Notes: generated from the letters alone by a model not told the origin. Positions 10,289-64,000 are shown, counted from the first letter of the stretch. The stretch is 64,000 nt of DNA from an uncultured Acidobacteriota bacterium (GCA_963761615.1 CAVXGU010000004.1:543537-607536); one strand, 5' to 3'. Numbers and translations are program-made.

Positions 10289-10290
10289 CG

Positions 10291-12236: not shown

Positions 12237-12362
12237 GAGAGCCGAGAGCCGAGAGCCGAGAGCCGAGAGCCGAGAGCCGAGAGCCGAGAGCCGAGAGCCG
12301 AGAGCCGAGAGCCGAGAGCCGAGAGCCGAGAGCCGAGAGCCGAGAGCCCAGAGCCGAGAGCC
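12237..12362 (+). repeat. Heptamer microsatellite, 18 tandem units of GAGAGCC (one CAGAGCC variant)
   Basis: Counted by hand: 126 nt of perfect 7-nt periodicity. It runs from just after ccggcc at 12236 to the stop codon (cta, 12362-12364) of the FAD-subunit gene. It lies about 75 nt upstream of the M3 peptidase start. Confidence 0.95.
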
Positions 12363-45497: not shown

Positions 45498-45506
45498 GAC
45501 GGGGGA

Positions 45507-45567
45507 GAGAACCTAGAGAACCCCGAGAACCTTGAGAACCCCGAGAACCCCGAGAAGCCCGAGACTC
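45507..45567 (+). repeat. Seven tandem 9-nt units (GAGAACCnn) filling the pepN-pfp spacer
   Basis: gagaacc ta gagaacc cc gagaacc tt gagaacc cc gagaacc cc gagaagc cc gagactc, ending 2 nt before ATG 45570. Confidence 0.85.
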
Positions 45568-46904: not shown

Positions 46905-47063
46905 GGGACGCTCCCCCGCCTCCCGCGCGTCACGACGCCGTCACTTCACCGCGACCGTCACCCTGACGGTGATCGGCACTTCCGCCGCGGCGCAGTCGAG
47001 GAGCGTCGGACTGAATTGCCATTGACGTGAGGCGCGGAGGAGTCGGGCGCCTGGGCGCGGCGG

Positions 47064-49230: not shown

Positions 49231-49487
49231 GACGCGTCTCCGTCGACGTCGAGCTCGGCGAGCTCGCCCATCTCCCGGAGATAGTCGAACACCTGATGCG
49301 CCTCGGCTTCGTCGATCGTGTTGATCGCGAAGCCGACGTGCACCAGCACGTAGTCGCCGACCCGGGCGTCGGGCACGTACGCCAGGTTCACCTGCTTGAC
49401 GATGCCCGAGAAGTCCACGCGTCCCGTGCGCAGCAGCGGGTCGTCACCCTGGATGCTCACGATCTTCCCGGGAACGGCTAGGCACAT
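49227..49487 (-). CDS. hypC: Hydrogenase maturation chaperone HypC/HupF family
   Basis: N-terminal [10 protein letters not shown] with the essential Cys2. 86 aa. Confidence 0.9.
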
Positions 49488-49508
49488 GATGGCCTCGCAT
49501 TCATCACT

Positions 49509-49715
49509 GGCGGCGGGGCCCCACCCCCGCCGCGAACTGACGCCGATGCTCGCCCTCGGATTCGCAGGTCCTCGGGCTCGCCTGGCCGCAGGCGCCGGCT
49601 TCTCTCACGGGCGGCGGGGCCGCGCCCCCGCCGCGAACTGACGTCGATGCTCGCCCTCGGATTCGCAGGTCCTCGGGCTCGCCTGGCCGCAGGCGCCGGC
49701 TTTTCTCCCCGGCGG
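49509..49715 (+). repeat. Tandem direct repeat, two ~101-bp units plus a degenerate partial third
   Basis: The unit ggcggcggggcc..ccccgccgcgaactgacg.cgatgctcgccctcggattcgcaggtcctcgggctcgcctggccgcaggcgccggctt.tctc occurs at 49509 and again at 49610, with about 6 differences by eye. Confidence 0.9.
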
Positions 49716-49758
49716 CCGGGTCCCGCCCAAGCCCATCAAACCTGTCCACCCGCCCACC

Positions 49759-49876
49759 CTACAGCGTTTTCGAGATCGATGTCGCCCCGCGATCGGTGTA
49801 GCCGCGGACCTTCAGGTCCGCCAATGCGAAGCCGACCTGAAGGTCGGCCGGTACATCCAAACGAAAACCGCTCTAG
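49759..49876 (+). mobile_element. MITE-like repeat, copy C
   Basis: ctacagcgttttcgagatcg...gcggaccttcaggtccgc caatgcgaa gccgacctgaaggtcggc...cgaaaaccgctctag. Its terminal ctag contains the hypF stop codon on the minus strand. Confidence 0.7.
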
Positions 49877-52218
49877 TCAACGCGTCCTGCGCCCCGCGCC
49901 GGTACCGCCCATCCTGCCACGACCGCCTGCCCGAGCGCGATGCCGCCGTCGTTGGGCGGCACCCGCTGGTGCCAGTACGCCCGGAGGCCCGCGCGCTCGA
50001 GGCCGCCGATTGTCTGCTCCAGCAGGCAGCGGTTCTGGAAGCAGCCGCCGGTCAGCACGACGCGAGGAAGCTCCATGCGGCGGGCGACCTCGACGATCGC
50101 CGACGCGAGGGTGCGGTGAAAGCGCGACGCGATGACTCCCGTCGCCGCGCCACGTTCACGCTCCTCGACAATCGCCTCGATCGTCGGCCCCCAGTCGACC
50201 ACGAGGGGGCCGCCGACGCCTTCGACGAAGCCGACTGGGTACTGGCCGCCCGCCCCTTCATCGACGGCGAACTCCAGCGCCATGGCCGCCTGGCCCTCGA
50301 AGCTCATGCGATGGCAGAGGCCGCAGAGCGATGCGACCGCGTCGAACAGGCGCCCGGCGCTCGAGGTGACGGGCGAGTTGAGGCCCTTGGCGAGCATCTG
50401 CACGAGCACGCGCCGTTCGGCCTCCTCGAAGGCCGCCACCGGCGCGAGATCGCCGCGCGAGACGAGCGCGGCGCCGTAGATCGCGTGCAGCAGGCCGAAT
50501 GCGGTTCGCCTCGGCTCGCGAACCGCGCGCTCGCCGCCCGGCAACCGGAACGGCCGCAGGGTGGCGACGCGCTCGAATTCCCCGCCGCGCGGCACGAGGA
50601 ACTCGCCGCCCCAGATCGTGCCGTCGGTGCCGTAGCCGGTCCCGTCCCATGCGACGCCGAGCACCGGCGCCTCCAGGTCGTTCTCGGCCATGCAGGCGGC
50701 CACGTGCGCGAAGTGATGCTGGACGCGCAGGACCGGCAGCCCCAGCCCCGTTGCGTACCGCGTGGAGCGGTAATCCGGATGCAGGTCGGCCGCCACCCGG
50801 GCGGGCTGAACGCCATAGAGGTCCCGGAACGCGGCGATCGTCCGCTCGAAGGCGTCCGCGGCCTGCGGCGTCTCGAGGTCGCCGATGTGCTGGCTGAGGA
50901 AGAACTGGCGGCCGACGCTGAGGCCGATCGTGTTCTTCAGATGACCGCCGACGGCCAGCGTCGGCGGCGGCGCGTCCGGCAGCGGGACGGGCAGCGGGGC
51001 GTATCCGCGAGCGCGCCGCAGCACCATCTCGCGGCCGCCGAGCACGCGGACGATCGAATCGTCCACGTGGCGGACGATCGGCCGGTCATGGACGAGGAAG
51101 AGATCCGCGACGCCGCCGAGCCTCGTCAGCGCCTCGCGCTCGTCGGTGCAGATCGGCTCGTCGGTCAGGTTACCGCTCGTCGCGATGACGGGACGGCCCA
51201 GATCGCGCATCAGCAGGTGATGCAGCGGCGTACACGGGAGCATGACGCCGAGCTGCGGGTTGCCCGGCGCCACCGACGGGGCGATCGTCGTCGGTCCGCG
51301 GCGCCGCGCGAGCAGCACGATCGGCGCCTCCGGCGAGCAGAGCAGGCGCGCCTCGAGCGGAGAGACGACACACTCGGTCTCGACGCCGTCCAGGCCTGGA
51401 AACAACAGGGCGAACGGCTTCTCCTCCCGGTGCTTCCGCGCGCGCAGCCTCCGTACGGCCTCGTCATCGGCCGCGCCGGCCATCAGGTGAAACCCGCCCA
51501 GGCCCTTCACGGCGACGATGGCGCCGCTGGCGATTGCGTCGACCGCACGCCGAAGGGCCTCGTCACGCTCCGCGAGCACGTGGCCGGTCCCGTCCCACAG
51601 CGCGAGCGAGGGACCGCACGCCCGACAGGCATCCGGCTGGGCGTGGAAGCGCCGATCGCGTGGATCGCCGTACTCGCGCGCGCACGCCGGGCACATGGCG
51701 AACGCCTTCATCGAGGTCCGCGCCCGGTCGTACGGCAGGCGTTCGACGATCGTGAACCGCGGTCCGCAGTTCGTGCAGTTGATGAAGGGATAGCGGAACC
51801 GGCGGTCGCCGGGGTCGAGCAGCTCGCGCAGGCAGTCGGAACAGGTGGCGATGTCGGGGAGGACGAACGCCGACGGCTGCGCGGCCGTCTCGCTCTCGCG
51901 AATCTCGAAGCCCGCGTAGCCCGCCGGGTCGAGCAGTGAGCACTCGCGGCTCACCACGACCGCCCGCGGCGGACGCTCCTCGTCGAGCAGGACGAGAAAG
52001 CGATCGACGGTCGGGCGGGTGCCTTCGATCTCGACGAACACGCCGTGCCCCGTGTTCGATACCCACCCGCAAAGCCCGAGGTCGGCGGCCAGCCGGTAGA
52101 CGAACGGACGGAATCCCACCCCCTGGACGGCGCCGTGCACGACGACGCGGGCGCGAACCTCGCCCGGGGTGGGGCCGGCTGCGCGGGTGGGGCGGGTGGG
52201 GCCGGCCGGGGTCTTCAT
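49873..52218 (-). CDS. hypF: Carbamoyltransferase HypF
   Basis: Acylphosphatase domain (VHGAVQGVGFRPFVYRLA), two zinc-finger pairs (CSDCLREL...CTNCGPRF, CPACAREY...CRACGP), and YrdC and Kae1-like domains. 781 aa. Confidence 0.92.
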   Translation of the reverse strand: MKTPAGPTRPTRAAGPTPGEVRARVVVHGAVQGVGFRPFVYRLAADLGLCGWVSNTGHGVFVEIEGTRPTVDRFLVLLDEERPPRAVVVSRECSLLDPAGYAGFEIRESETAAQPSAFVLPDIATCSDCLRELLDPGDRRFRYPFINCTNCGPRFTIVERLPYDRARTSMKAFAMCPACAREYGDPRDRRFHAQPDACRACGPSLALWDGTGHVLAERDEALRRAVDAIASGAIVAVKGLGGFHLMAGAADDEAVRRLRARKHREEKPFALLFPGLDGVETECVVSPLEARLLCSPEAPIVLLARRRGPTTIAPSVAPGNPQLGVMLPCTPLHHLLMRDLGRPVIATSGNLTDEPICTDEREALTRLGGVADLFLVHDRPIVRHVDDSIVRVLGGREMVLRRARGYAPLPVPLPDAPPPTLAVGGHLKNTIGLSVGRQFFLSQHIGDLETPQAADAFERTIAAFRDLYGVQPARVAADLHPDYRSTRYATGLGLPVLRVQHHFAHVAACMAENDLEAPVLGVAWDGTGYGTDGTIWGGEFLVPRGGEFERVATLRPFRLPGGERAVREPRRTAFGLLHAIYGAALVSRGDLAPVAAFEEAERRVLVQMLAKGLNSPVTSSAGRLFDAVASLCGLCHRMSFEGQAAMALEFAVDEGAGGQYPVGFVEGVGGPLVVDWGPTIEAIVEERERGAATGVIASRFHRTLASAIVEVARRMELPRVVLTGGCFQNRCLLEQTIGGLERAGLRAYWHQRVPPNDGGIALGQAVVAGWAVPARGAGRVD

Positions 52219-52889
52219 TTCCGGCGGCCGCGTGTCGAAGCCAGCTCGTCGAGGCGCGCCAGCCAGTCGTCCATGCCGGCGCCCGTCTTCGCGGAGACTT
52301 CGAGGATCTCGAGGCCGGGGCGCACCTCGTGGATGTTGTGGCGCGCCGCGGCGCGATCGAACTCGACGGCGGCGGCGAGGTCCGTCTTCGTCACGATCGC
52401 CAGGTCGGCCGTGTTGAAGATCGTCGGGTACTTGAGCGGCTTGTCCTCGCCTTCGGTGACCGAGAGGAGCACCACGCGGACGTGCTCGCCGAGGTCGTAG
52501 CTCGACGGGCAGACGAGATTGCCGACGTTCTCGAGGAAGAGCCGATCCAGCGTTTCGAGGTCCCAGCCTTCCTCTTCGAGCGCCCGCTCGATCATCTCGG
52601 CCTCGAGATGGCAGACGGTGCCGGTCGTGATCTGGCGCACGCGCGCGCCGGTCCCGGCGAGACGCCTGGCGTCGTTGTCCGTCGCGAGATCGCCCACGAG
52701 GACGCCCGCGCGCCGCCGGTCGGCGAGCCGCTCCAGCGTCTTCTGCAGGAACGTCGTCTTGCCGGCGCCCGGGCTCGACACCAGGCTCGCGACGAAGACG
52801 CCGGCCGCATCGAACCGCGCGCGCAGCGCACGGGCGAGCAGGTCGTTCTTCTTGAGGATGCCCTCGCGGACCTCAACGATGCGCGGCAC
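52215..52889 (-). CDS. hypB: Hydrogenase nickel-incorporation GTPase HypB
   Basis: P-loop SSPGAGKTTFL, ENVGNLVCP, TKTDL. No His-rich N-terminal stretch. Confidence 0.9.
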   Translation of the reverse strand: MPRIVEVREGILKKNDLLARALRARFDAAGVFVASLVSSPGAGKTTFLQKTLERLADRRRAGVLVGDLATDNDARRLAGTGARVRQITTGTVCHLEAEMIERALEEEGWDLETLDRLFLENVGNLVCPSSYDLGEHVRVVLLSVTEGEDKPLKYPTIFNTADLAIVTKTDLAAAVEFDRAAARHNIHEVRPGLEILEVSAKTGAGMDDWLARLDELASTRGRRK

Positions 52890-53235
52890 GGTCCTCCACC
52901 TCCAGCGCGGTCAGCTCGAGCTCCCGGCCGCCGGTCACGTCGGGCGTCGCCGCGCCGCAGACCGGGCAGTGCAGGTGCTGTGCGCTGATGATCTCACGGT
53001 CCTCGCCGCACTGCGGGCAGAACGCGGCGAGCGGCACGTCCTCGATCTCCAGCCGGGCGCCGGCGATTGCGGTCCCCTGGGCCGCCAGGTCGAAGCAGAA
53101 GAGCAGGGCGTCCTTGACGACGCCCGAGAGCGGGCCGAGGCGCACGTAGACGGCGTCGACGCGGACGTCGCCGAGGCCGCGCGCCCGGTCGCTGGCCGCC
53201 TCGACGAGCGCCAGCGCGACCGACAGCTCATGCAC
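52873..53235 (-). CDS. hypA: Hydrogenase nickel-insertion protein HypA
   Basis: MHELS N-terminus, and a zinc site CPQCG...CPVCG. Confidence 0.9.
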   Translation of the reverse strand: MHELSVALALVEAASDRARGLGDVRVDAVYVRLGPLSGVVKDALLFCFDLAAQGTAIAGARLEIEDVPLAAFCPQCGEDREIISAQHLHCPVCGAATPDVTGGRELELTALEVEDRAAHR

Positions 53236-53256
53236 GGCCGGTGCTCCGGGACCGGG

Positions 53257-53658
53257 TCATGGGTGCGCTCCGAGCGATAGGACGTACGCCGTGAGATCCC
53301 AGGCGTCCGTCTGGCTCAGGGCCCTCCACGCCGGCATCGGCGTCCCGGCGAGACCCTCGCGGATCGCGAAGAAGACGCGTCGGGGCGACGTGGACGCGCG
53401 CCACGCCGCGTCGGTGAAGTCGCGCGGCGGCTGGCTGAGGCCCTCGCGGCGGACGCCGTGCCCGTCGCCGCGCGCGCCGTGGCAGAGCGCGCAGTGCGCG
53501 AGGAACAGCACGCGGCCCCGCGCCCGGGCTGCCGGCGAGTCCAGCGTGGCGGACGGCACCGCGATCCGGCGGTACGCCGCCGGAAGGTCGCGGTCAGGAC
53601 CGCCGCAGGCCGGGCAGGAGAGGATCATCAGCAGTGCGCTCAGCGCGAGCGGTTTCAT
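53257..53658 (-). CDS. Mono-haem c-type cytochrome lipoprotein
   Basis: Lipobox LMILSC. A single CALCH haem motif, with a distal GTPMPAW Met candidate. Embedded between hupD and hypA; overlaps the hupD 3' end by 65 nt. Confidence 0.7.
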   Translation of the reverse strand: MKPLALSALLMILSCPACGGPDRDLPAAYRRIAVPSATLDSPAARARGRVLFLAHCALCHGARGDGHGVRREGLSQPPRDFTDAAWRASTSPRRVFFAIREGLAGTPMPAWRALSQTDAWDLTAYVLSLGAHP

Positions 53659-54148
53659 CGGTCCTGGGGCGGAAGGGGAATCCCAGCGCTCCCGCCTCCT
53701 CGACGATTCGGTCGACCAGTCCGGGCAGGCCGGGGGCGACCTGCGGCGAGAGGCCGACGGCCAGCTCCATCGACGCGGGCACGAGCCCGACGAGGATCAC
53801 GCGGCGCGGGTACCGGTCCAGCCAGCGGGCCCCGTCCAGCAGATCCGCGACGCCCACCTGGTGCGGCGACAACCGGGTCGCCACGGCCGGCGGCACCTCG
53901 TCTCCCTCCAGGCGGACGAACGTGCCGGGCGGCTCGCCCGTGCGGATCGCGTCGACGAGGATGGCCACGCCGGCATTCTCGAGATAGGGGAGCAGCGCGA
54001 GTCCGAGCGTGCCGCCGTCGAGGACGCGCGTCCCTTCTGGAGCATCGTAGCGCGCATTCAGTTCCGCGACGGCCGCGGCGCCGACGCCATCGTCCTCCAG
54101 CAGGAGGTTGCCGAGGCCCAGCACGAGGAGCCTGGCCGGTTCATTCAT
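53594..54148 (-). CDS. hupD: [NiFe] hydrogenase maturation endopeptidase (HyaD/HupD family)
   Basis: LVLGLGNLLLEDDGVG, LVDA, and SPHQVGVADLL motifs. Confidence 0.88.
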   Translation of the reverse strand: MNEPARLLVLGLGNLLLEDDGVGAAAVAELNARYDAPEGTRVLDGGTLGLALLPYLENAGVAILVDAIRTGEPPGTFVRLEGDEVPPAVATRLSPHQVGVADLLDGARWLDRYPRRVILVGLVPASMELAVGLSPQVAPGLPGLVDRIVEEAGALGFPFRPRTDETARAERTADDPLLPGLRRS

Positions 54149-54866
54149 CGACGTCCCCGTGATGCAGCCACCGGTAGGGGCCGAGGCGGAGCGCGCTCCT
54201 GGGCACCCATTTGTAGCCGCTGAAGATCGAGTCGAGCGTGCCCATCTTCTCGACGATCGCCACCAGCCACGCGCTGTAGACGTGATGCACCACGAAGCCC
54301 AGGAGGAGCCACATCGTCACGTGGTGAATCCAGCGCGCGGTCTGGAAGCCGCCGAAGACCGGCGCGAGCACCGTGAACCACCGGAGCGGCGACGTCACGC
54401 CGGCGTGGGACGCGTACATCGTCAGTCCCGTGAAGATGGCGATCAGGTACAGCACGTACACGAGCGCGTACGTGACGCCTGCCAGCGGGTTGTGGCCGAC
54501 GTAGCTCGGCGGCGTATCCTGGGCGAACAGGTAGAACGAGAGGGTGCCCGGGACGCCGCGGCGCCGCGTGGCGTGCACCGGGACGAACTTGTCCCAGCGC
54601 GCGTACTTGTTGCCCGTGAACATCCAGATGACCCGCATGACGACCGCCGTGACGAACACCGCGGCGGCGTAGAAGTGGATCACCTTGGCCCAGCCCATCA
54701 CGAAGGAGAACCGGGCCTCGCCCGGGACCGTGATGAACGGATGGCCGATGTAGATCCCGGTCGCGGCGAGCACGACGATCGAGAGCGCGATGAGCCAGTG
54801 CGCGATGCGCACGGGCCGCTGCCACACGTAGACGCGGACGATCTCGCCGTCGGATTCGGGCGTCAT
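54141..54866 (-). CDS. hupC: Ni/Fe-hydrogenase b-type cytochrome subunit
   Basis: Last 241 codons of ORF 54141..56414, starting MTPESDGEIVRVYVWQRPVRIAHW. Four TM helices with conserved His residues (IAHW, VIHFY, HNPLAG, WIHHVTMW). The ATG overlaps the hupL stop (ATGA). Confidence 0.85.
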   Translation of the reverse strand: MTPESDGEIVRVYVWQRPVRIAHWLIALSIVVLAATGIYIGHPFITVPGEARFSFVMGWAKVIHFYAAAVFVTAVVMRVIWMFTGNKYARWDKFVPVHATRRRGVPGTLSFYLFAQDTPPSYVGHNPLAGVTYALVYVLYLIAIFTGLTMYASHAGVTSPLRWFTVLAPVFGGFQTARWIHHVTMWLLLGFVVHHVYSAWLVAIVEKMGTLDSIFSGYKWVPRSALRLGPYRWLHHGDVDE

Positions 54867-56569
54867 ACGACCTTCACCCGCGCCAGCTCGCGGCGGCTGG
54901 CGTCCACCACGTGCACGCCGCAGGCCATGCACGGGTCGAAGGAGTGCACGGTGCGCAGGATCTCGACCGGCCGCTGGGGATCGGCCACCGGCGTGCCGAC
55001 GAGCGCCTCCTCGTACGGACCGCGGCGCCCGCCCGCGTCGCGGGGCCCCGCGTTCCACGTGCTCGGCACGACGCACTGGTAGTTCGCGATCGTCCCGTGC
55101 TCGATGTGCACCCAGTGGCTGAGCGCGCCACGGGGCGCCTCGTGCAGCCCGGCGCCGGTCGCGCTGGCGGGCCAGGTCGACGGATCCCACTTGGAGCTGT
55201 CGTGGATGCGGAGCTCCCCGGAGCCCATGTTCGCCGCGAGCCCCTCGACCCAGTCGTCCATCTTCTCGGCCAGGACCTGCGTCTCGATGCCCCGGGCCGC
55301 GACGCGGCCGAGCGTCGAGAAGAGGGCGTCGGCGCCCACGCCGAGCTTCGTCAGGACGCCGTCGACCAGCGTCTTCACGCGGGCGTGTCCGGAGACGTAC
55401 GCGACCAGCATCCGCGCCAGCGGGCCGACCTCCATCGGTTCGTCCCCATAGCGCGGCGCCTTGAGCCACGAGTACTTCTTGTCGGTGTCGAGCCGCTGGT
55501 AGGGCGGCGTCGGCCCCGTGTAGTTGGGCGTGGTCTCGCCGTCGAACGGGTGGAGCGACACGCCGTCGCCGCCCTGGTAGCCGTACCACGAGTGCGTGAT
55601 GTACTCGGCGACCCGGGTCTGGTCGAAGGGCTCGATCTTCGAGATGTCGCGGCCGCGGATGATTCCCTGCGGCAGGAAGAGCGCCGGCGTCGGCGCGTCG
55701 TTCTCCGGGTACTCGCCGAACGCCATGTAGTTCCCGACGCCGCGACCGTACCCTGCCCAGTCCTTGTAGAAGGACGCGACCGCGAGCAGGTCGGGCAGAT
55801 AGACGCGCGTGACGAAGTCGCGCGCCCTGGCCGTCAGCTCCCTGAGGGCCGCGATCGTTCCCGCGTTGAGCGCCGCCTGGCTGTCGGGATCGACCGGCGT
55901 CGCCATGCCGCCGACGAGGAAGCTCTGGAGGTGCGGGTTCTTGCCGCCGAGGATCGCGTGGAGCTTGATGAACTCGCGCTGCCAGTCGAGCGCCTCGAGA
56001 TAGTGCGCGACCGCCATCAGGTTCGCCTCCGGCGGCAGCCGGTACGCGGGGTGGCCCCAGTAGGCGTTCGCGAACGGCCCGAGCTGTCCGCGATCGACGA
56101 ACGCCTTGATCCGGTCGCGTACGCCGGCGAAGTACTTCGCGCCCGAGAGCGGCCAGTCCGAGATCGACTCGGCGAGCGACGAGGTTTTCGCCGGGTCGGC
56201 GGACAGTGCCGAGACGATGTCGACCCAGTCGAGCGCGTGCAGGTGGTAGAAGTGGATGACGTGGTCCTGGATGCACTGCGCACCGATGATCAGGTTCCGC
56301 AGGAGCCGCGCGTTGGGCGGCGGCACGGCGCCGATGGCGTGCTCGACGGCGCGGATGGACGCGATGGCGTGTACCGTCGTGCACACGCCGCAGATCCGCT
56401 GGGTGAACGCCCACGCGTCGCGAGGATCGCGCCCTTTCAGGATCAGCTCGATCCCGCGGAACATCGTCGACGACGACCAGGCGTCGCGGACGACACCGCC
56501 GTCGACCTCGGCCTCGATCCGGAGGTGCCCTTCGATGCGGGTCACCGGGTCCACGACGACGCGGCTCAT
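54863..56569 (-). CDS. hupL: [NiFe] hydrogenase large subunit, group 1 (membrane-bound uptake type)
   Basis: Starts MSRVVVDPVTRIEGHLRIE. N-terminal RICGVCTTVH and C-terminal DPCMACGVH nickel ligands, plus a 15-aa C-terminal extension for proteolytic maturation. Confidence 0.92.
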   Translation of the reverse strand: MSRVVVDPVTRIEGHLRIEAEVDGGVVRDAWSSSTMFRGIELILKGRDPRDAWAFTQRICGVCTTVHAIASIRAVEHAIGAVPPPNARLLRNLIIGAQCIQDHVIHFYHLHALDWVDIVSALSADPAKTSSLAESISDWPLSGAKYFAGVRDRIKAFVDRGQLGPFANAYWGHPAYRLPPEANLMAVAHYLEALDWQREFIKLHAILGGKNPHLQSFLVGGMATPVDPDSQAALNAGTIAALRELTARARDFVTRVYLPDLLAVASFYKDWAGYGRGVGNYMAFGEYPENDAPTPALFLPQGIIRGRDISKIEPFDQTRVAEYITHSWYGYQGGDGVSLHPFDGETTPNYTGPTPPYQRLDTDKKYSWLKAPRYGDEPMEVGPLARMLVAYVSGHARVKTLVDGVLTKLGVGADALFSTLGRVAARGIETQVLAEKMDDWVEGLAANMGSGELRIHDSSKWDPSTWPASATGAGLHEAPRGALSHWVHIEHGTIANYQCVVPSTWNAGPRDAGGRRGPYEEALVGTPVADPQRPVEILRTVHSFDPCMACGVHVVDASRRELARVKVV

Positions 56570-57678
56570 GACGGCTCTCCCTTCGACGGCTTGGGCGGAA
56601 TCGGTTCGGCCTTGTCGCCGACGCGCTTCATGATCTGGATCAGGCCGTGGCCCGCGAACGCGGCGCCGACCGCCGCGACGGCACCGATGCCGATGGTGTC
56701 GATGTTGGACGCGGCGCCGAAGCCCGGGATGCCCGAGAGGTGCTGGTAGAAGGGCGTCATCTTGTCCCAGAAATCCGGCTCCGCGCAGCCGATGCACGGA
56801 TGCCCGCACCCGATCGGCCAGTTGGTCCCGCCGTTCCAGAGGATGTTGGGGCAGTTCTGGAAGGTGACCGGCCCCTTGCAGCCCATCTTGTAGAGGCAGT
56901 AGCCGTCGCGGTGCCCCTGGTCGCCCCACGCCTCGACGTATTGGCCGGCGTCGTAGTGCGCGCGGCGCTCGCAGGCATCGTGAATCGAGGTGCCGTACGC
57001 GAAGAGCGGCCGGCGGAGGTGATCGAGCGCCGGCCACCTCTTGAACGTCAGGTAGTGGACGAGCAGCGCCGTCAGGTTCTCGACGTTGGCCGGGCAGGCC
57101 GACAGGTTGATCAGGTTCTTCACGCCCGGGACGGCGTCGGCCACGCCGAGCGCGCCGGTCGGGTTCGGCGACGCCGCGGGGATGCCGCCGAACGACGCGC
57201 AGGTGCCGATCGCGATCGTCGCCGCGGCGCCGCCGCACACCTCGCGCGCGATGTCGAGCCCCGCCTTCCCGCCGATCGTGCAGTACGCGCCGTTCGCGCC
57301 GGTCGGGATCGAGCCCTCGACGACGGCGATGTAGCCGCCCTTGCGCTGGTCGACGACGTTCGCCAGGTTCTGCTCGGCCTGGACGCCGGCCGCCGCCATG
57401 ATCGTCTCGTGATAGTCGATCGACAGCAGGTCCAGGACCACCTCGGCGGCGGTCGGACGGCTGGCGCGCAGGAAGGACTCGGTGTTGCCCGCGCAGTCCT
57501 GGAACTCGAGCCAGACGAGCACGGGTTTGTCGGTGGAGGTGATGGCGCGCGCGATCTGCGCCGCCACGGAATCGGGCAGGGCCAGCGCCGCCGCCATGGT
57601 GGCGCAGAAGCTCAGGAACTCACGTCGTGACACGCCGCGCCGTTCGAGCTCGGCGGCCAGCCATCCGTGTTCGCTCAT
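56566..57678 (-). CDS. hupS: [NiFe] hydrogenase small subunit with TAT signal and a C-terminal membrane anchor
   Basis: RBS GGAGGAG precedes ATG 57678. N-terminus MSEHGWLAAELERRGVSRREFLSFCATMAAALALP. FeS motifs GTCASFGG, HDACERR, CLYKMGCKGP, GCGHPCIGCAEPDFWD. The proximal motif reads DCAGNTES instead of ECTGC(S/T)ES. Confidence 0.9.
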   Translation of the reverse strand: MSEHGWLAAELERRGVSRREFLSFCATMAAALALPDSVAAQIARAITSTDKPVLVWLEFQDCAGNTESFLRASRPTAAEVVLDLLSIDYHETIMAAAGVQAEQNLANVVDQRKGGYIAVVEGSIPTGANGAYCTIGGKAGLDIAREVCGGAAATIAIGTCASFGGIPAASPNPTGALGVADAVPGVKNLINLSACPANVENLTALLVHYLTFKRWPALDHLRRPLFAYGTSIHDACERRAHYDAGQYVEAWGDQGHRDGYCLYKMGCKGPVTFQNCPNILWNGGTNWPIGCGHPCIGCAEPDFWDKMTPFYQHLSGIPGFGAASNIDTIGIGAVAAVGAAFAGHGLIQIMKRVGDKAEPIPPKPSKGEPS

Positions 57679-57774
57679 CAGCTCCTCCGTCGATCGACCG
57701 GGTCCGTCGATCGCGCGAGGGAAGCGCGCGGCGGCCGCGCCCCTCCGCCTTTCCGGCACCGGTGGCGCGCGGAC

Positions 57775-57789
57775 GCAACTCCCGTGCCC
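57775..57789 (-). promoter_or_regulatory. Candidate sigma-54 (-24/-12) promoter for the hydrogenase operon
   Basis: The minus strand reads GGGCAC GGGAG TTGC, which fits GGCAC-N5-TTGC (GG-N10-GC), about 97 nt upstream of the hupS ATG. Confidence 0.4.
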
Positions 57790-57923
57790 GTACCGCTCGC
57801 GGCGCGGGTCAGGTTGGAGTCATGCGCCCTGCCGGAAAATCGGCGCGCGGTGGAGATCTGGAGATATCGTGATTGGGGTGATGGGGTGATGGGAACCTGG
57901 AGGCTCGCGGGGGCGCCCGAACC

Positions 57924-58325
57924 ATGAGACCCGCTTACTACGACGAGTCTCCTCCGCCGGCGCTCCTCGAGGGCGTCGCGCAGTTCAATCGCGGCGAGTA
58001 CTTCGAGCAGCACGAAACCCTGGAGCTGCTCTGGCGTGCCGAGCGGCGCGACGTCCGCTACCTGTATCAGGGGATCCTGCAGATCGGCGTGGCTTTCCAT
58101 CACCTCCGACGGGGGAATCACCACGGGACGGTCTACATGCTGATGCGGGGCGCGCGGTACCTCGCGCCGTTCGCGCCGGCCTGTCAGCGGATCGACGTGG
58201 CGGCGCTCCTCGCCGCGGCGGCGGTGGCCCTCCGGGAGGTCGAGCGTCTGGGCCCGCGGCGCCTCGACGAGTTCGACTGGGACCTGGCGCCGAAGGTGGT
58301 GCTGGTGCCGGATCTCGAGCGCTGA
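57924..58325 (+). CDS. DUF309-domain protein
   Basis: GVAQFNRGEYFEQHETLELLWR...YQGILQIGVAFHHLRRGN matches the remembered DUF309 pattern. Confidence 0.7.
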   Translation: MRPAYYDESPPPALLEGVAQFNRGEYFEQHETLELLWRAERRDVRYLYQGILQIGVAFHHLRRGNHHGTVYMLMRGARYLAPFAPACQRIDVAALLAAAAVALREVERLGPRRLDEFDWDLAPKVVLVPDLER

Positions 58326-58427: not shown

Positions 58428-59012
58428 ATGGCGGCTTCATCCGGACGCACGCTGGTCAGCACCTGGGATCGCCTGGTGGACAGCTCGTGGAACTACCGGA
58501 TCGCGATGGTCGCCGACCTGCTCGCGCCGCTCGGTTGGCTGGCGTTCGCGGTCAGACGCTTCCAGGGCGCGCCGGTCGCGGGCCTGGCGTGGGCGGTCGG
58601 CGGGTTCTTCTGCTTCGGTTTTTTGGAGTACGCCGTGCACCGGTGGGTGCTCCACGGGCCGTTTCCCGTCTTCCGCCGCAGCCATGCGCGCCACCATGCC
58701 CACCCGCTGGCGCTGTACAGCGCCCCGCTCCTGGTGATGATGACGGTCTCGCTGGCCATCTTCGGCGCGCTCGACCTCGCGCTGCCGACCACGGCAGCCG
58801 CCCTGCTGGTCTTTGGCCTCTACGCCGGTTATGACTACTTTGCGGTGCTGCACCACCTGCAGCATCACTCGGTCGACGAGCTCGGACAGATGCCGTACTT
58901 CCACGATCTCGAGCGCTTCCACGACCGCCATCACCACCGGCCGTCCGTCAACTTCGGCATCACCACGACCTTCTGGGACCGCGTGTTCCGCACCTTCGAG
59001 CGCCGCGCCTGA
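58428..59012 (+). CDS. Fatty acid hydroxylase / sterol desaturase-family membrane di-iron protein
   Basis: Histidine boxes HRWVLH, HARHH, HHLQHH and HDRHHH, interspersed with TM helices. Confidence 0.75.
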   Translation: MAASSGRTLVSTWDRLVDSSWNYRIAMVADLLAPLGWLAFAVRRFQGAPVAGLAWAVGGFFCFGFLEYAVHRWVLHGPFPVFRRSHARHHAHPLALYSAPLLVMMTVSLAIFGALDLALPTTAAALLVFGLYAGYDYFAVLHHLQHHSVDELGQMPYFHDLERFHDRHHHRPSVNFGITTTFWDRVFRTFERRA

Positions 59013-59127: not shown

Positions 59128-59156
59128 TTGTGTACAGGGGCGCTCGAGGCGATACT
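59128..59156 (+). promoter_or_regulatory. Candidate sigma-70-type promoter (TTGTGT-N17-GATACT) of the copper-cluster paralogue 1
   Basis: The same architecture recurs at 62632-62660 (TTGCAG-N17-GATACT), at the corresponding place upstream of paralogue 2. Confidence 0.4.
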
Positions 59157-59251
59157 TACGGCGAGCCCAGCTCGTGTATACAGTTGGAGCAGCAAGGGAT
59201 ACGGGGACGGTTAGTTTGAGCACCAATGTTTTGACCTGCAAGGAGGGTGTC

Positions 59252-60655
59252 ATGAAAGGTTCGAAGGGGCCACACTGGCGGGGAGTGTGGCGGGCCGGCC
59301 TCGTCTCGGCGGCCGCACTGTGCATGGCTGCGCCAGCTCTGGCAGCGGGCGCGCCGACAGACGTGACGTTCACGAAGGACGTCGCGCCAATCCTGCAGGC
59401 GAAGTGTCAGGATTGCCACCAGCCAGGATCCATCGCGCCGATGTCGCTCATCACGTACGAAGAAGCCCGTCCATGGGTTCGCGACATCCGCGAGAAGGTG
59501 GCCCAGCGCGAGATGCCACCCTGGCACATCGACAAGTCCGTCGGCATCCAGAAGTTCAAGAACGACTTCTCGCTGAGCGACGAGCAGATCGCGACGATCG
59601 TGAAGTGGGTGGACGAAGGCGCCCCGAAGGGCGACCCCGCCGACATGCCGCCGCCCAAGAAACTGGCGGACCCGAACGAGTGGCGCGGTGTGGTCGACGG
59701 TCTCGGCCAGCCCGACCTCGTCATCACGTCGCCGTCGTGGACCGAGCCGCCGGTGCACCAGGACCTCTGGTGGCGTCCGGAGCAGGCCATTCCCATCACC
59801 GAGCCGCGCTGGGTGCGGGCCGTTGAGATCCGGCCCTCGACGGTTCCGGGCCGCCGGATCATGCACCACATCATCGCCTATCGCGTGCTGAACGCGGACG
59901 AGGCCGATGCCGTGAACACCGGCACGGGCCAGGGCGCGCGCTTCGCGCTGGCCGACAACATCGTCAACGCCCGGCCGCAGCTCATGGAGTGGGCCATCGG
60001 GAAGGGCTACGACATGTACCGCGCGGGCACCGGCAAGCGGATCGAGCCGGGCGAGAAGATCTCGTGGGAGATGCACATCCACGCCGTCGGTGAGCAGATC
60101 ACGTCTGGCGCCCAGATGGCCATCTGGTTCTACCCGAAGGGTCAGGAGCCGACCAAGCAGAGCTACCTCGTCGGCTTCCAGGCCGTCGGCGACCGGACCC
60201 CGGGCAGCTCGGGTCTCGACATCCGGCCGAACAGCATCTCGATGTCGGAAGGCTTCACGACGCTGAACAAGCCGGCCATCCTCGAGAACTTCCAGCCGCA
60301 CATGCACCTGCGCGGGAAGGCGATGGAAATCGAAGCCATCCTGCCGAACGGCAACCACCAGGTGATCAGCTTCGTGCGGAACTTCAACTTCAACTGGATG
60401 ACGAACTACGTCTACGCCGACGATGCGGCGCCGGCGTTCCCGAAGGGGACGATCATCCACGTGACCGCCTGGTACGACAACACGGCGGGCAACCGGAACA
60501 ACCCCGATCCGAACCAGTGGGTCGGCTACGGCGATCGCACGGTGGACGAGATGGGCCACGCCTGGGTGAACGTGACCTACCTCTCCGACCAGGAGTACGC
60601 TGACTGGCTCAAGCAGCACTCCAAGACGCCGGACCGGAGTCAGCAGCAGCAGTAA
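59252..60655 (+). CDS. Secreted cytochrome c fused to a PHM/DBH-like (copper type II monooxygenase-like) domain, paralogue 1
   Basis: RBS AAGGAGG, signal peptide, FTKDVAPILQAKCQDCH...REMPPW. Ordered ligand candidates follow: MHHII (205/206), MHIH (275/277), PHMH (350/352), DEMG (434). Confidence 0.7.
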   Translation: MKGSKGPHWRGVWRAGLVSAAALCMAAPALAAGAPTDVTFTKDVAPILQAKCQDCHQPGSIAPMSLITYEEARPWVRDIREKVAQREMPPWHIDKSVGIQKFKNDFSLSDEQIATIVKWVDEGAPKGDPADMPPPKKLADPNEWRGVVDGLGQPDLVITSPSWTEPPVHQDLWWRPEQAIPITEPRWVRAVEIRPSTVPGRRIMHHIIAYRVLNADEADAVNTGTGQGARFALADNIVNARPQLMEWAIGKGYDMYRAGTGKRIEPGEKISWEMHIHAVGEQITSGAQMAIWFYPKGQEPTKQSYLVGFQAVGDRTPGSSGLDIRPNSISMSEGFTTLNKPAILENFQPHMHLRGKAMEIEAILPNGNHQVISFVRNFNFNWMTNYVYADDAAPAFPKGTIIHVTAWYDNTAGNRNNPDPNQWVGYGDRTVDEMGHAWVNVTYLSDQEYADWLKQHSKTPDRSQQQQ

Positions 60656-60688
60656 CGGCGGCTGTCTGATCGCTGTAGATCAACGACG

Positions 60689-60729
60689 CGAGGCACCCGC
60701 CGAAGGGGGCGGGTGCCTCGCCCTTTCTC
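60689..60729 (+). terminator. Rho-independent terminator
   Basis: 13-bp stem cgaggcacccgcc / ggcgggtgcctcg with loop gaaggg, followed by ccctttctc. Confidence 0.65.
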
Positions 60730-60751
60730 ACAGGGGCGGGAAGGTATCGCG

Positions 60752-61636
60752 ATGAAGTCGGTGATGTGGGTACTCGGTGCAGTAGCGGTTTCGGCGGTGG
60801 CCGTCGCAGTCGCGGGAGCCCAGCAGATCGTGCTCCCCGGCCAGCCGCATGCGGAGTTCGGCGACAGTGTCACGCCCGCCTTCGAGGGTTGGTACGATCT
60901 TCCCGACGGCTCTCACAACTTCCTGTTCGGGTACTACAACCGCAACAGCAAACAGGTCATCGACATTCCGGTCGGACCGAACAACAACGTGCAGCCCGGA
61001 GGGCCCGACCTCGGGCAGCCGACGCATTTCCTGACCGGTCGCAACTGGGGGCTGTTCGCCATCAACGTCCCCAAGACCTACACGCTGCAGGACAAGCCGT
61101 TCGTCTGGTCGATCAATGCCAACGGTCAGCAGGTCCAGATCCCCACGGACTTCAAGCCTGAGTACAACATCGACGTCTTCAGCGACGCGGAGCACAACAC
61201 ACCGCCGGTGATCAAGTTCGATGAGCGCGGGCAGACGGTTCAGGGACCGGTGAACACGTCGTTCGAGCGGACCGCGACGGTCGGCAAGCCGCTGGACCTT
61301 CCGATCTTGGCGAACGACGACAACATCTACACGAGCGGCAGCAACGCGCCGCGCAGCCGCATGGGCGATCCCGTGCGGTTCACGTGGACCCTGTACCGAG
61401 GGCCCGCGGACGTCACCTTCGCCAAGGCGGAGCCGAAGTTCGAGGTGACCTCCGGCGGCGCTGAACTCGGCAAGCCCGTGTCCGGCAAGGGCGATACCAC
61501 GGTCACCTTCTCCGAGGCCGGCGACTACTGGCTCCAGATCGTGGCGAACGACTACTCCGGGCCGGGTGGATCCGGATCCGGGGCGGCCGGGTGCTGCTGG
61601 ACCAACGCGCTCCTCAAGGTCAAAGTCACGCAGTAA
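60752..61636 (+). CDS. Secreted protein of unknown function (two beta-rich domains, C-terminal GCCW motif)
   Basis: Start MKSVMWVLGAVAVSAVAVAVAGAQQ. Balanced, aromatic-rich composition. Ends ...GSGSGAAGCCWTNALLKVKVTQ. Confidence 0.65.
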   Translation: MKSVMWVLGAVAVSAVAVAVAGAQQIVLPGQPHAEFGDSVTPAFEGWYDLPDGSHNFLFGYYNRNSKQVIDIPVGPNNNVQPGGPDLGQPTHFLTGRNWGLFAINVPKTYTLQDKPFVWSINANGQQVQIPTDFKPEYNIDVFSDAEHNTPPVIKFDERGQTVQGPVNTSFERTATVGKPLDLPILANDDNIYTSGSNAPRSRMGDPVRFTWTLYRGPADVTFAKAEPKFEVTSGGAELGKPVSGKGDTTVTFSEAGDYWLQIVANDYSGPGGSGSGAAGCCWTNALLKVKVTQ

Positions 61637-61792
61637 GCATGTTTCGACCGCCCCGGCCGCCCACGTGGCGCGGCCGGGGCCGTTCGCCGTTCGTCCCCGC
61701 CTCCTCCCACCCGTCTCGACGGCTTTCCCAGACACTCCACCTCGCATCGACATACGGTCCGCCGGGAATACCGCGAGCACGTCCGGGGTTCT

Positions 61793-61869
61793 GAGAGCCC
61801 AGAGCCCAGAGCCCAGAGCCCAGAGCCCAGAGCCCAGAGCCCAGAGCCCAGAGCCCAGAGCCCAGAGCC
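61793..61869 (+). repeat. Heptamer microsatellite, 11 units (GAGAGCC then 10x CAGAGCC)
   Basis: Counted by hand. Ends 1 nt before the RBS gaaggag of the histidine-brace gene. Confidence 0.95.
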
Positions 61870-61882
61870 CGAAGGAGCCGTG

Positions 61883-62497
61883 ATGCAGCCGTTTGCCCGT
61901 CTGTCGCTGGCCGCCCTCGTCGCGGTCGCCCTGCCTGCCGTGGTGAGTGCCCACTTCGTCCTCGTGCAGCCGGCCCCGACGCTGCAGCAGGACCGTCTCG
62001 GCAATCCCCAGAAGCTCGGACCGTGCGGCGGGACGTCCGCGGACGCGGGCACGCCGTCCGGCGCCGTCACGCCGGTCCAGGGCGGCACCACGCTGCACAT
62101 CGAAGTGCAGGAGACCGTCTTTCACCCGGGGCACTACCGCGTGGCGCTCGCCGTCAACGCCCTCAGCGAACTGCCGGCCGAGCCGGACGTCACCACGGAG
62201 GCCACGGCGAACGGCCCACGGTCGGTGTCGGCCGTGATCGACCAGGATCCGAAGCCGCCGGTGCTCGCCGATGGCGTGTTCGTCCACACCGACCGCGCCG
62301 CGATTGCCGCGCCGTTCGAGGCCGACGTGTCCGTGCCGAACATCACCTGCCCGAGGTGCACGCTGCAGGTCATCGAGTTCATGGCGCAGCACGGCTACAA
62401 CGCCGACGGCGGCTACTTCTACCACCACTGCGCCGCGCTCGCGATCACGGCGGATCCGTCCAAGCCGATCGACACGCGCTGGCCCTCCGCGCGGTAG
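61883..62497 (+). CDS. Secreted histidine-brace-type copper protein (LPMO-like)
   Basis: The signal peptide MQPFARLSLAALVAVALPAVVSA is followed directly by HFVLVQP, so mature residue 1 would be His. Second His candidate in FHPGHYRV, aromatic YFYHH, and four Cys. GTG 61880 is an alternative start. Confidence 0.65.
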   Translation: MQPFARLSLAALVAVALPAVVSAHFVLVQPAPTLQQDRLGNPQKLGPCGGTSADAGTPSGAVTPVQGGTTLHIEVQETVFHPGHYRVALAVNALSELPAEPDVTTEATANGPRSVSAVIDQDPKPPVLADGVFVHTDRAAIAAPFEADVSVPNITCPRCTLQVIEFMAQHGYNADGGYFYHHCAALAITADPSKPIDTRWPSAR

Positions 62498-62631
62498 CGG
62501 CCGCACGTCGGTTCTTCCCTCCGGGGCCGTCGCCGCGGCCGCAGGGCGGCATCCGGCGACCTCGGCCATTCGACCCGAATCGGGCGGGCTCCTCGTCGTT
62601 TGTCGACGTTTGTAAAAATCACGACAGACCC

Positions 62632-62660
62632 TTGCAGTCGCGGCGCCGCGGCGCGATACT
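62632..62660 (+). promoter_or_regulatory. Candidate sigma-70-type promoter (TTGCAG-N17-GATACT) of paralogue 2
   Basis: Positional and sequence counterpart of 59128-59156. Preceded by tttgtaaaaa (compare ttcgtaaaaa upstream of paralogue 1). Confidence 0.4.
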
Positions 62661-62781
62661 GCACGCCTCATGCGTACCATTGGAGCACCAATGATTGGAG
62701 CACAAATGGCTCAGTCTGTCTGGTGTGAGCGCGCGACGTGGCGATGGTGCGCGATGGCGAATGACCGGCAAGGAGGGTGAC

Positions 62782-64000
62782 ATGGAAGGTTCGAAGCGAC
62801 CACGCTGGCGGGCCGTGCGGCGTGCCGGCCTCGTGTCGGCAGCTGCGCTGTGCATGGCCGCGCCAGCCCTGGCGGCGGGTGCGCCGCCGACCGTGACGTT
62901 CACCAAGGACGTCGCGCCGATCCTGCAGGCGAAGTGTCAGGACTGCCATCAGCCCGGCTCGATCGCGCCGATGTCGCTCATGACCTACGAGGAGACGCGC
63001 CCGTGGGTGCGTGACATCCGCGAGCGGGTCGCCAACCGCGAGATGCCGCCGTGGCACATCGACAAGTCGGTGGGCATCCAGAAGTTCAAGAACGACTTCT
63101 CGCTGAGCGACGAGCAGGTCGCGACGATCGTCAAGTGGGTGGACGAGGGCGCGCCGAAGGGTGACCCGGCCGACATGCCGCCGCCCAAGAAGATGCCGGA
63201 TCCGAACCAGTGGAAGGGCGTGCTCGACGGGCTCGGCCAGCCGGATCTCGTGATCACGTCGCCGATGTGGACGGAGCCGCCGGTGCACCAGGACGTCTGG
63301 TGGCGTCCGGAGCAGCCGATTCCGATCACCGAGCCGCGCTGGGTGCGGGCCGTCGAGATTCGACCCTCGACGATTCCGGGCCGCCGGATCATGCACCACA
63401 TCATCGCCCACCGCATCCTGAACGCGGACGAGGCCGACCAGGTCAACACCGGCACGGGGTCGCGCAACATCGCGCTGGTGGACACCCTGGTCAACTCGCG
63501 CCCGCAGTTGATGGAGTGGGCCATCGGCAAGAGCTACGACCTGTATCGCGCGGGCACCGGCAAGCGGATCGAGCCGGGCGAGAAGATCTCGTGGGAGATG
63601 CACATCCACGCCGTCGGCGAGCAGATTACCTCCGGCGCGCAGATCGCGATCTGGTTCTATCCGAAGGGCCAGGAGCCGACGAAGGAGACCTATCTCGTCG
63701 GATTCTCGGCGGTCGGCGACCACACCCAGGGCAGCTCGGGTCTCGACATCCGGCCGAACAGCATCTCGATGTCGGAAGGCTTCACCACGCTGCGGAAGAA
63801 CGCGATCCTCGAGAACTTCCAGCCGCACATGCACCTGCGCGGGAAGGCGATGGAAATCGAAGCCATCCTGCCGAACGGCAACCACCAGGTGATCAGCTTC
63901 GTGCGGAACTTCAACTTCAACTGGATGACGAACTACGTCTACGCCGACGATGCGGCGCCGGCGTTCCCGAAGGGGACGATCATCCACGTGATTGCCTGGT
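62782..64000 (+). CDS. Cytochrome c::PHM/DBH-like fusion, paralogue 2 (3' end beyond the window; not in the supplied ORF track)
   Basis: RBS AAGGAGG precedes ATG 62782. Hand translation gives MEGSKRPRWRAVRRAGLVSAAALCMAAPALAAGAPPTVTFTKDVAPILQAKCQDCHQPGSIAPMSLMTYEE... colinear with paralogue 1. Open to base 64000. Confidence 0.75.
   Translation, partial: MEGSKRPRWRAVRRAGLVSAAALCMAAPALAAGAPPTVTFTKDVAPILQAKCQDCHQPGSIAPMSLMTYEETRPWVRDIRERVANREMPPWHIDKSVGIQKFKNDFSLSDEQVATIVKWVDEGAPKGDPADMPPPKKMPDPNQWKGVLDGLGQPDLVITSPMWTEPPVHQDVWWRPEQPIPITEPRWVRAVEIRPSTIPGRRIMHHIIAHRILNADEADQVNTGTGSRNIALVDTLVNSRPQLMEWAIGKSYDLYRAGTGKRIEPGEKISWEMHIHAVGEQITSGAQIAIWFYPKGQEPTKETYLVGFSAVGDHTQGSSGLDIRPNSISMSEGFTTLRKNAILENFQPHMHLRGKAMEIEAILPNGNHQVISFVRNFNFNWMTNYVYADDAAPAFPKGTIIHVIAW

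Follow-up and report, generated by a model that had tools for sequence, protein, structure and literature searches.

Among non-coupled binuclear copper monooxygenases, only peptidylglycine α-hydroxylating monooxygenase (PHM), dopamine β-hydroxylase (DBH), and tyramine β-monooxygenase are, to our knowledge, well studied; these enzymes are without exception eukaryotic and ascorbate-dependent. Redox systems fed by a cytochrome include cellobiose dehydrogenase (CDH), which donates electrons to lytic polysaccharide monooxygenases (LPMOs), nitrite reductases NirK with a fused cytochrome c, and the cytochrome b561-DOMON-DBH-like proteins. Here we describe a locus from an uncultured Acidobacteriota bacterium, located at positions 59,128-64,000 of a 64,000-nucleotide stretch of DNA that was analyzed as a whole and is referred to as the window (GCA_963761615.1, CAVXGU010000004.1:543537-607536). 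Its central element is a pair of adjacent genes, g1 and g2, the first of which encodes a predicted fusion of a mono-haem cytochrome c domain with a PHM/DBH-like core. Based on the sequences, the structural models, and the analogy with PHM and DBH, we suggest, with a probability of roughly 0.6, that g1 and g2 constitute a periplasmic two-copper monooxygenase module, in which electrons would be delivered via the haem c domain of g1 itself and g2 would serve as an accessory protein. The features of the pair and of g4, the second g1 copy of the locus, are as follows.

59252-60655, plus strand: g1, 467 residues (open reading frame and translation), with a putative signal peptide, a mono-haem cytochrome c domain, and a PHM/DBH-like core
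59363-59626, plus strand: cytochrome c domain of g1 (approximately residues 38-125), with CxxCH at nt 59405-59419 and M88 at nt 59513-59515
59711-60586, plus strand: PHM/DBH-like core of g1 (approximately residues 154-445)
59864-59869 (H205/H206) and 60074-60076 (H275): putative CuH ligands of g1
60299-60307 (H350/H352) and 60551-60553 (M434): putative CuM ligands of g1
60752-61636, plus strand: g2, 294 residues, with a putative signal peptide and two predicted β-sandwich domains, a novel N-terminal one and a PKD-like C-terminal one
62782-64000 and past the window end, plus strand: g4, second g1 copy, 406 residues seen

An earlier note on this DNA had proposed a secreted copper-oxygenase cluster of four consecutive same-strand genes with signal peptides. 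The open reading frames at 59252-64000 agree with this layout (g3, described below, is located between g2 and g4), but the cluster does not start at 59128, since the true start of g1 is approximately 120 nt further downstream. All four N-termini, read by eye rather than with a predictor, show a basic n-region followed by a hydrophobic core and a cleavage site of the AxA type; the putative signal peptide of g1 is of the Sec type, and no twin-arginine motif was seen in it by the same reading. Because haem of the c type is attached to proteins in the periplasm, the exported products are more likely to be periplasmic than secreted further. Each gene is preceded by a Shine-Dalgarno-like sequence 5-8 nt upstream, and the GC content at third codon positions varies between 0.87 and 0.93. 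The g1 and g4 proteins are 89% identical, and the ratio of nonsynonymous to synonymous substitution rates between them is 0.18, so both window copies appear to be maintained by purifying selection. A stretch of 187 nt without a single mismatch (60278-60464 in g1, approximately 63805-63991 in g4), which covers the codons of H350 and H352, probably reflects gene conversion between the two copies, which elsewhere are approximately 88% identical. The differences between g1 and g4 are concentrated in residues 220-240, a loop modeled with low confidence; that this loop tunes the specificity of the two proteins is speculation.

The AlphaFold2 model of g1 (mean predicted local distance difference test score, pLDDT, 72.8) comprises a catalytic core of two β-sandwich subdomains, as in PHM and DBH. 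In the Foldseek search of this model against the PDB, ranks 1-31 are all PHM or DBH structures (probability 1.00, E-values from 1e-10 to 6e-08, TM-scores of 0.49-0.62 when normalized to PHM length), and the subsequent ranks are unrelated proteins with E-values of about 1e-05. The conservation of putative metal ligands points in the same direction. In 47 homologs, the pair H205/H206, the HxH motifs 275/277 and 350/352, and M434 are all invariant, and among seven relatives at 27-37% identity the only invariant histidines and methionines are H205, H206, H275, H350, H352, and M434, with H277, H403, and H436 not being retained in this wider set. The six remaining residues reproduce the PHM pattern HH / H / HxH / M in both order and spacing.

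Sequence profiles provide a further connection. The profile A3, built from the seven divergent relatives, matches human DBH (4zel) with an E-value of 5e-4, and in this alignment vvHH is placed over H262/H263 of DBH, elH over H333, and PHxH over H412/H414 (residue numbers counted from the printed alignment with a construct offset of 39), all five of which we take to be copper ligands of DBH. A paralog that is 37% identical to g1 (L028:12472-13542) matches the Pfam domain Cu2_monoox_C just above its cut-off (E-value 5.8e-5, 23.1 bits vs. 23) and shows an additional weak match to Cu2_monooxygen; sub-threshold Cu2_monoox_C matches were obtained for the proteins P0417, P0444, and P0513, and further relatives score 16-20 bits. 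Taken together, four independent lines, namely the predicted fold, the ligand conservation, the alignment of A3 with DBH, and the Pfam matches of divergent paralogs, argue that the core of g1 and g4 is homologous to PHM and DBH, in line with the proposal of the earlier note that the two genes are paralogous cytochrome c fusions of a PHM-like domain. In this assignment, H205, H206, and H275 would form a CuH-like site, and H350, H352, and M434 a CuM-like site. The structure-prediction check that the note had recommended yielded PHM and DBH as the best PDB matches of the g1 model, whereas the recommended profile searches were successful for g3 (NF043005, see below) and not for g1 and g4, which had no direct match to the Cu2_monooxygenase domains and only sub-threshold matches to cytochrome c.

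Compared with the animal enzymes (PF01082 + PF03712; 1phm, 4zel), g1 shares the predicted core of two β-sandwiches and the order and spacing of HH...H...HxH...M, but its sequence is only 11-15% identical and scores below all Pfam thresholds. It is bacterial and predicted to be periplasmic, it carries an N-terminal haem c domain where the animal enzymes depend on ascorbate, cytochrome b561, or DOMON, and it is encoded alongside g2, a partner gene for which animal PHM and DBH offer no equivalent. Both DBH and g1 have a glutamine two residues before HxH, at the position which in PHM is occupied by the carboxylate-binding arginine; hence, a peptidyl-glycine substrate is not implied for g1.

The same evidence bears on the reading of the PHM-like domain as a non-catalytic binding or structural module, similar to PNGase F or to a carbohydrate-binding β-sandwich, with its histidines and methionine serving another metal or the structure. 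The PHM fold does occur in non-copper proteins, a peptide:N-glycanase is among the weaker Foldseek matches (E-value 2.6e-5), and g1 stays under the Pfam thresholds. What has stayed invariant over a deep divergence, however, are precisely the six positions of the PHM/DBH ligands, correctly ordered and spaced; these positions align to the ligands of DBH, and every member inspected has a redox haem domain fused to the core. We therefore regard a non-catalytic core as highly improbable for g1 and g4. A degenerate g1-like protein of 398 residues that retains the cytochrome c domain and has lost one histidine of the HH pair, the HxH motif, and the methionine was observed at another locus (L062:15861-15313), and this particular protein may be a non-catalytic derivative.

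The N-terminal domain of g1 contains a single CxxCH motif (C52-H56), preceded by the motif F-T-K-D-V-A-P-I-L, and C-terminal to it a M88-P-P-W motif that is invariant in the 47 homologs. Both CxxCH and MPPW are retained in all divergent relatives that were read, including N-truncated fragments, and M64 of g1 is lost in divergent relatives. Because MPPW persists and M64 does not, M88 is probably the distal haem ligand. The matches of this domain to known families are all marginal (E-values of 0.002-0.4): the Pfam scores for Cytochrome_CBB3, Haem_bd, and PccH are sub-threshold (18.7 vs. a cut-off of 27), and weak matches to the hydrazine synthase α haem domain (5c2v) and to PccH (4rlr) were obtained with the profile of the g1 family. 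The resemblance to planctomycete-type or PccH-like mono-haem domains consists in the pattern F-x-K/R-D-[IV]-x-P-I-[LF]-x-x-x-C-x-x-CH, followed later by MPP...W[IV]..GA. The haem domains of hydrazine synthase α and PccH have different fusion partners, the partner in g1 being the PHM-like core. We conclude that the N-terminal domain of g1 is likely a class I-like mono-haem c-type cytochrome that would bind haem covalently at CxxCH.

By analogy with PHM and DBH, the following mechanism can be proposed. After Sec-dependent export of g1 to the periplasm, O2 would be bound at CuM (H350/H352/M434), where a C-H bond of the substrate would be hydroxylated, and CuH (H205/H206/H275) would be the entry point of the two electrons needed per turnover. 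Instead of ascorbate, the fused haem c would provide these electrons, drawing ultimately on the cytochrome pool of the periplasm or the respiratory chain. Such an arrangement would follow the same logic as CDH with LPMOs, NirK with cytochrome c, and the b561-DOMON-DBH-like proteins, in that a haem domain is tethered to a copper site and no diffusible reductant is needed. The catalytic folds of the CDH-dependent LPMOs and of NirK are the LPMO fold and the cupredoxin fold, whereas that of g1 is predicted to be of the PHM type, and the electron transfer in g1 is postulated by analogy. The haem type also differs from those of cytochrome b561 and CDH, with the haem of g1 being predicted as c-type and thus Sec/Ccm-dependent.

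The direction of electron flow could in principle be reversed, with g1 acting as a copper oxidase or dehydrogenase that passes substrate electrons via haem c to the respiratory chain and conserves energy. Fused c-type cytochromes are a typical feature of periplasmic dehydrogenases supplying the respiratory chain, the many paralogs per genome are reminiscent of the dehydrogenase families that have diversified by substrate in soil bacteria, and pyrroloquinoline quinone (PQQ) dehydrogenases are encoded near some g1 loci. The ligand set of g1, including the CuM-like methionine, is nevertheless that used by PHM and DBH for O2 activation with electron input, and we know of no member of the PHM fold that acts as a dehydrogenase. 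This makes the reversed direction improbable, and electron input into a monooxygenase is the direction we favor.

The partner gene g2 was found to accompany g1 almost without exception. In a sample of 82 genomic g1 loci, 79 are evaluable for g2 (the remaining three end too early), and in 77 of them g2 comes after g1 in the same orientation; this number includes 75 loci detected by script, L024 with a 4-nt overlap between the genes, and L046, where g2 follows a second g1 copy. The two exceptions are L038 and L066, and the median distance between the genes is approximately 26 nt. Thus g2, which had been described as an orphan without a recognizable motif, is in fact a near-obligatory neighbor of g1 with a large family of its own (at least 3,832 homologs, none of them named). 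Within single genomes, the g2 adjacent to the g1 paralog that is nearest to the window g1 is also the nearest g2, and divergent g1 copies (42% identity in L049 and 36% in L036) adjoin their own divergent g2 copies (28% and 32%, respectively). Since the similarity of g2 tracks that of the adjoining g1, the sequences indicate that the pair duplicates and diverges as a unit.

The AlphaFold2 model of g2 (pLDDT 73.4) consists of two β-sandwich domains, for which the Foldseek search against the PDB returned only generic immunoglobulin-like matches. The C-terminal domain shows weak PKD matches in 12 of 40 family members, and the Pfam and NCBIfam scans of g1, g2, and g4 produced nothing beyond weak cytochrome c and PKD matches. 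The main g2 family is characterized by the invariant motifs EGW, GYxNRN, PxGPxN, GQPTHF, DD, NDYSG, and CCW, the last of which follows a flexible glycine-rich loop. In the divergent g2 proteins of L049 and L036, the loop motifs of the N-terminal domain are kept, and the CCW motif, the NDYSG-glycine loop, and the sole invariant histidine are lost. As a result, g2 has no universally conserved metal ligands, and this loss argues against g2 as a metal-binding or cofactor-bearing protein; CCW as a cofactor or metal site, which was considered for the main family, is correspondingly weakened. Most likely, g2 is a dedicated accessory subunit, co-duplicated with g1, that would contribute to substrate binding, presentation, scaffolding, or docking.

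The tight 1:1 synteny in most genomes and the co-diversification of the two families can also be read differently, with g1 being a protein-modifying maturase and g2 its substrate, comparable to MauG with preMADH or MbnH with MbnP. In this case, residues of g2, for example around the glycine-rich loop and CCW, would be hydroxylated or cross-linked to produce a cofactor or a metal site. Besides the synteny, this would fit the lack of a recognizable catalytic motif in g2, the invariance of CCW after the glycine-rich loop in the main family, and the fact that PHM itself works on peptides. Nonetheless, precisely the residues in question are missing in the g2 partners of the divergent g1 copies in L049 and L036, no universally conserved g2 residue is left to which the modification chemistry could be pinned, and tandem arrays contain several g1 copies per one g2. 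We thus consider a maturase unlikely and retain g2 as a probable accessory subunit of a g1 monooxygenase.

The third gene of the locus encodes a protein of a different kind. Its coordinates and those of the adjacent repeat are as follows.

61794-61870, no strand: perfect heptamer tandem repeat AGAGCCC x 11.0, which ends approximately 10 nt before the g3 start, directly 5' of its ribosome-binding site GAAGGAG
61883-62497, plus strand: g3, 204 residues, histidine-brace-type (LPMO-like / Bim1-like) protein with a putative signal peptide and the mature N-terminus H24

The g3 protein matches the NCBIfam family NF043005 (SCE4755 family polysaccharide monooxygenase-like; E-value 7.8e-32, 110.3 bits vs. 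a cut-off of 75) and has at least 5,110 homologs. Cleavage of its signal peptide is predicted by eye at VSA|HF, leaving H24 at the mature N-terminus, and all of 35 homologs carry the motif [AG]-H-F immediately behind an AxA-type site. The other residues invariant in this set are H81, H84, H135, H170, H181, H182, Y85, Y180, and four cysteines; the second brace histidine and the axial residue are probably to be sought among these histidines and tyrosines. Sub-threshold matches to the Pfam domain BIM1-like_dom were found in 15 of the 35 members, the printed alignments beginning at or within one residue of the mature histidine, and single members match AA9 and LPMO_10 weakly and below threshold. 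No PDB relative of g3 was detected by single-sequence or profile search. The suggestion that g3 belongs to the histidine-brace or LPMO-like proteins is therefore reasonable. The position of the histidine after the signal peptide is also what g3 shares with Bim1/X325 proteins (PF20238; PMC10952591, PMC7924993), its Pfam scores for Bim1, AA9, and LPMO_10 all being below threshold. Histidine-brace proteins include copper binders and carriers besides enzymes (PMC10952591, PMC7924993).

The genomic context indicates that g3 is not a regular partner of the pair. It was found in none of the 82 g1 loci, and conversely g2 was found in none of 80 metagenomic g3 loci. A full-length but distant cytochrome c-PHM-like gene (29-35% identity) is located within 1 kb of g3 in two of these 80 loci (L156 and L162), and two further loci show a match to the cytochrome domain only, approximately 4 kb away; compared with a rough chance expectation of about 0.3 locus, the two cases are a faint hint of an association at most. 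Moreover, a sister population, about 90% identical at the DNA level, has the gene order FA_hydroxylase - g1 - g2 - g1b - g1c - g1d - g2' - MBOAT (joined from L083 and L085, which are probably contiguous) and no g3. The window segment 61690-62630, containing the heptamer repeat and g3, has no counterpart there, and another g1 copy is found in its place. The locus is thus best explained, from comparison of the two sequences, as a recently amplified g1(-g2) array into which g3 was inserted or swapped, so that the g1-g2 pair appears to be the real unit and g3 a recent, lineage-specific local insertion.

The composite cluster of the earlier note, in which all four genes would belong to one copper-oxygenase system with g3 as an obligatory LPMO-type enzyme or copper loader of g1/g4 and g2, has on its side the adjacency of the genes on one strand, their four signal-peptide-like N-termini, the prediction of three of the products (g1, g3, and g4; g2 has no conserved metal ligands) as copper proteins, and the slight excess of g1-like genes near g3. 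It is at variance with the absence of g3 from all g1 loci and of g2 from all g3 loci, with the replacement of the g3 segment by a g1 copy in the close relative, and with the local arrangement, where g3 has its own ribosome-binding site and is flanked by gaps of 246 and 284 nt. In the 82 g1 loci and 80 g3 loci sampled, the four genes are never found together, an outcome that the note had itself named as refuting its cluster. A conserved four-gene system is accordingly very unlikely, and the pair g1-g2 is retained as the candidate module; g3 would act independently or, if linked to it at all, more plausibly in copper handling than as a fixed catalytic partner. The expectation that the cluster continues past the window end was borne out, as the 823,511-bp contig of the window also encodes P0002, a g1 paralog with 91% identity to g4, and P0122, a g2 paralog; the array beyond the window end is deduced from cluster membership and the sister contig.

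Several observations weigh against the proposed monooxygenase module. With respect to g1, its model is of moderate confidence, with a pLDDT below 50 in the loop of M434; this methionine is part of an invariant D-E-M motif, but the A3-DBH alignment ends before the methionine ligand. Neither g1 nor g4 has a match to PF01082 or PF03712 at E ≤ 1, and the single-sequence search of the PDB with g1 found no match. In fact, no sequence method (Pfam, PDB sequence search, or family profile) tied g1 itself to PHM: searches of the PDB with the single sequences of g1, g2, and g3 and with the profiles A1 and A4 yielded nothing relevant, and only the broadened profile A3 reached DBH. With respect to g2, its role is our inference, and its single histidine and CCW are lost in divergent partners; the excess of g1 over g2 copies in the array argues against a strict 1:1 stoichiometry. 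Finally, no substrate can be proposed, and the flanks of g1 loci are not conserved.

The family to which g1 belongs is large and practically unannotated. When clustered at 90% identity, it includes at least 8,000 clusters, nearly all of which are unnamed or named "mono/diheme cytochrome c family protein". A search with only the catalytic domain retrieved 5,005 representatives (50% identity) at E ≤ 1e-3, of which 2,202 have E ≤ 1e-10. In full-length matches, this domain begins at residue 125-170, leaving space for the cytochrome domain, and two seeming exceptions turned out to be N-truncated fragments that still begin inside it; the fusion to the haem domain is thus universal among the family members inspected. 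The overwhelming majority of the genomic matches come from Acidobacteriota (Vicinamibacterales, Bryobacteraceae, and Terriglobia), with a few metagenome-assembled genomes labeled Acidimicrobiia. Five further such genomes (L040, L045, L048, L053, and L070) are titled as uncultured Bifidobacterium or Bifidobacteriaceae and carry typical acidobacterial g1-g2 loci; their labels look wrong. Multiple g1 paralogs per genome are observed, with up to four on a single 4-Mb contig.

The fused core also occurs in extended architectures. Paralogs in L025 and L036 (approximately 750 residues) carry added TPR repeats, and P0444 (1251 residues) and P0513 (1064 residues) combine the core with AhpC/TSA-thioredoxin domains or EF-hands, which suggests varied redox or regulatory contexts of the core across the superfamily. 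In some genomes, the third gene after g1-g2 is a g1-like paralog with 37-38% identity (L028:12472-13542, L041:12345-13463, and L011:12421-13671); those of L028 and L041 have an extra C-terminal domain of approximately 130 residues and no g2 of their own.

A literature search for bacterial PHM/DBH-like proteins, Cu2_monooxygen, cytochrome c fusions of this fold, and the SCE4755 family found nothing on these subjects, with coverage being incomplete; within this limit, it is in agreement with the statement of the earlier note that no bacterial system of this composition has been characterized. The copper-monooxygenase fold is already known, as is the database link to Cu2_monoox_C, the latter for distant relatives and not for the subfamily of g1. 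New aspects are an electron-donor domain as part of the protein itself, an obligate partner gene, and the lineage of the host. The broader proposition that g1-g2 is the first bacterial PHM/DBH-type system, driven by electrons from respiratory cytochrome c, equipped with a β-sandwich subunit, and diversified into paralogs for varied organic substrates in soil Acidobacteria, is put forward tentatively, as we believe it somewhat less probable than its negation.

The g1 family is concentrated in abundant soil Acidobacteriota, where the g1-g2 pair is very common. If active, the pair would provide a bacterial model of PHM/DBH chemistry amenable to tests by heterologous expression, a case where nature has replaced ascorbate by intramolecular electron transfer from haem to copper, and possibly a large unrecognized oxidative capacity in soil carbon turnover. 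The unit for such a study would be g1 with g2, and not the set of four genes.

Each family of neighboring genes is limited to 12 of the 82 g1 loci at most, and the recurring ones are generic acidobacterial families. Directly upstream of g1, the window encodes a DUF309 protein (57924-58325) and FA_hydroxylase (58428-59012). The latter is equally placed in L083, and both are present in L001 with one extra gene between them; this synteny was seen in close relatives only. An uncharacterized secreted family of approximately 290-340 residues is encoded near g1-g2 in 9 of the 82 loci (L004, L006, L011, L028, L032, L042, L043, L060, and L065) and, as judged by shared motifs only, near g3 in 16 of the 80 loci (e.g., L128:1713-2570). 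It is characterized by the motifs PDLxGxW ... DGRPH ... WxGDSxGxWEGDTLVV ... EYxCxEN, one scanned representative had no Pfam match, and the recurrence may just reflect the abundance of this family in Acidobacteria. An NHL-repeat β-propeller is located near g1-g2 in 10 of the 82 loci (e.g., L043:14281-15576 and L027:12491-13477), in varying positions and orientations. The animal partner of PHM, the lyase PAL, is an NHL propeller. The NHL neighbor was considered as a PAL-like lyase that would complete a bacterial counterpart of the bifunctional PHM-PAL enzyme PAM and was rejected, as it matches only generic NHL/TRIM families, has no PAL match at E ≤ 1, and varies in placement.

The Rfam scan of the whole window gave no match. 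Intergenic short tandem repeats with related GAGA-containing units are scattered over the window: besides the AGAGCCC repeat upstream of g3 (x 11.0, 61794-61870), they comprise GCCGAGA x 18.4 (12234-12362) and further GAGA-type repeats, namely AGAGAACCC x 6.6 (45506-45564) and GCCGAGAGCCCAGA x 2.8 (10252-10289). At least two such repeats end just upstream of a start codon, that of g3 and that of the gene at 45570. The repeats appear to be a habit of this genome and might change the spacing of promoters or ribosome-binding sites.

On the minus strand at approximately 47000-57800, the window contains what looks, from translations only, like a [NiFe]-hydrogenase operon. It includes the small subunit (56566-57759, minus strand) with a signal RREFLSF resembling those of the twin-arginine translocation pathway, the large subunit (approximately 54863-56600), a cytochrome b-like membrane subunit (approximately 54141-54830), a maturation protease (53594-54148), and, beyond it on the minus strand, probable hyp maturation genes. 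An intergenic gap of the hydrogenase-maturation region contains 2.2 copies of a 101-bp unit, with 91% identity (49504-49728).

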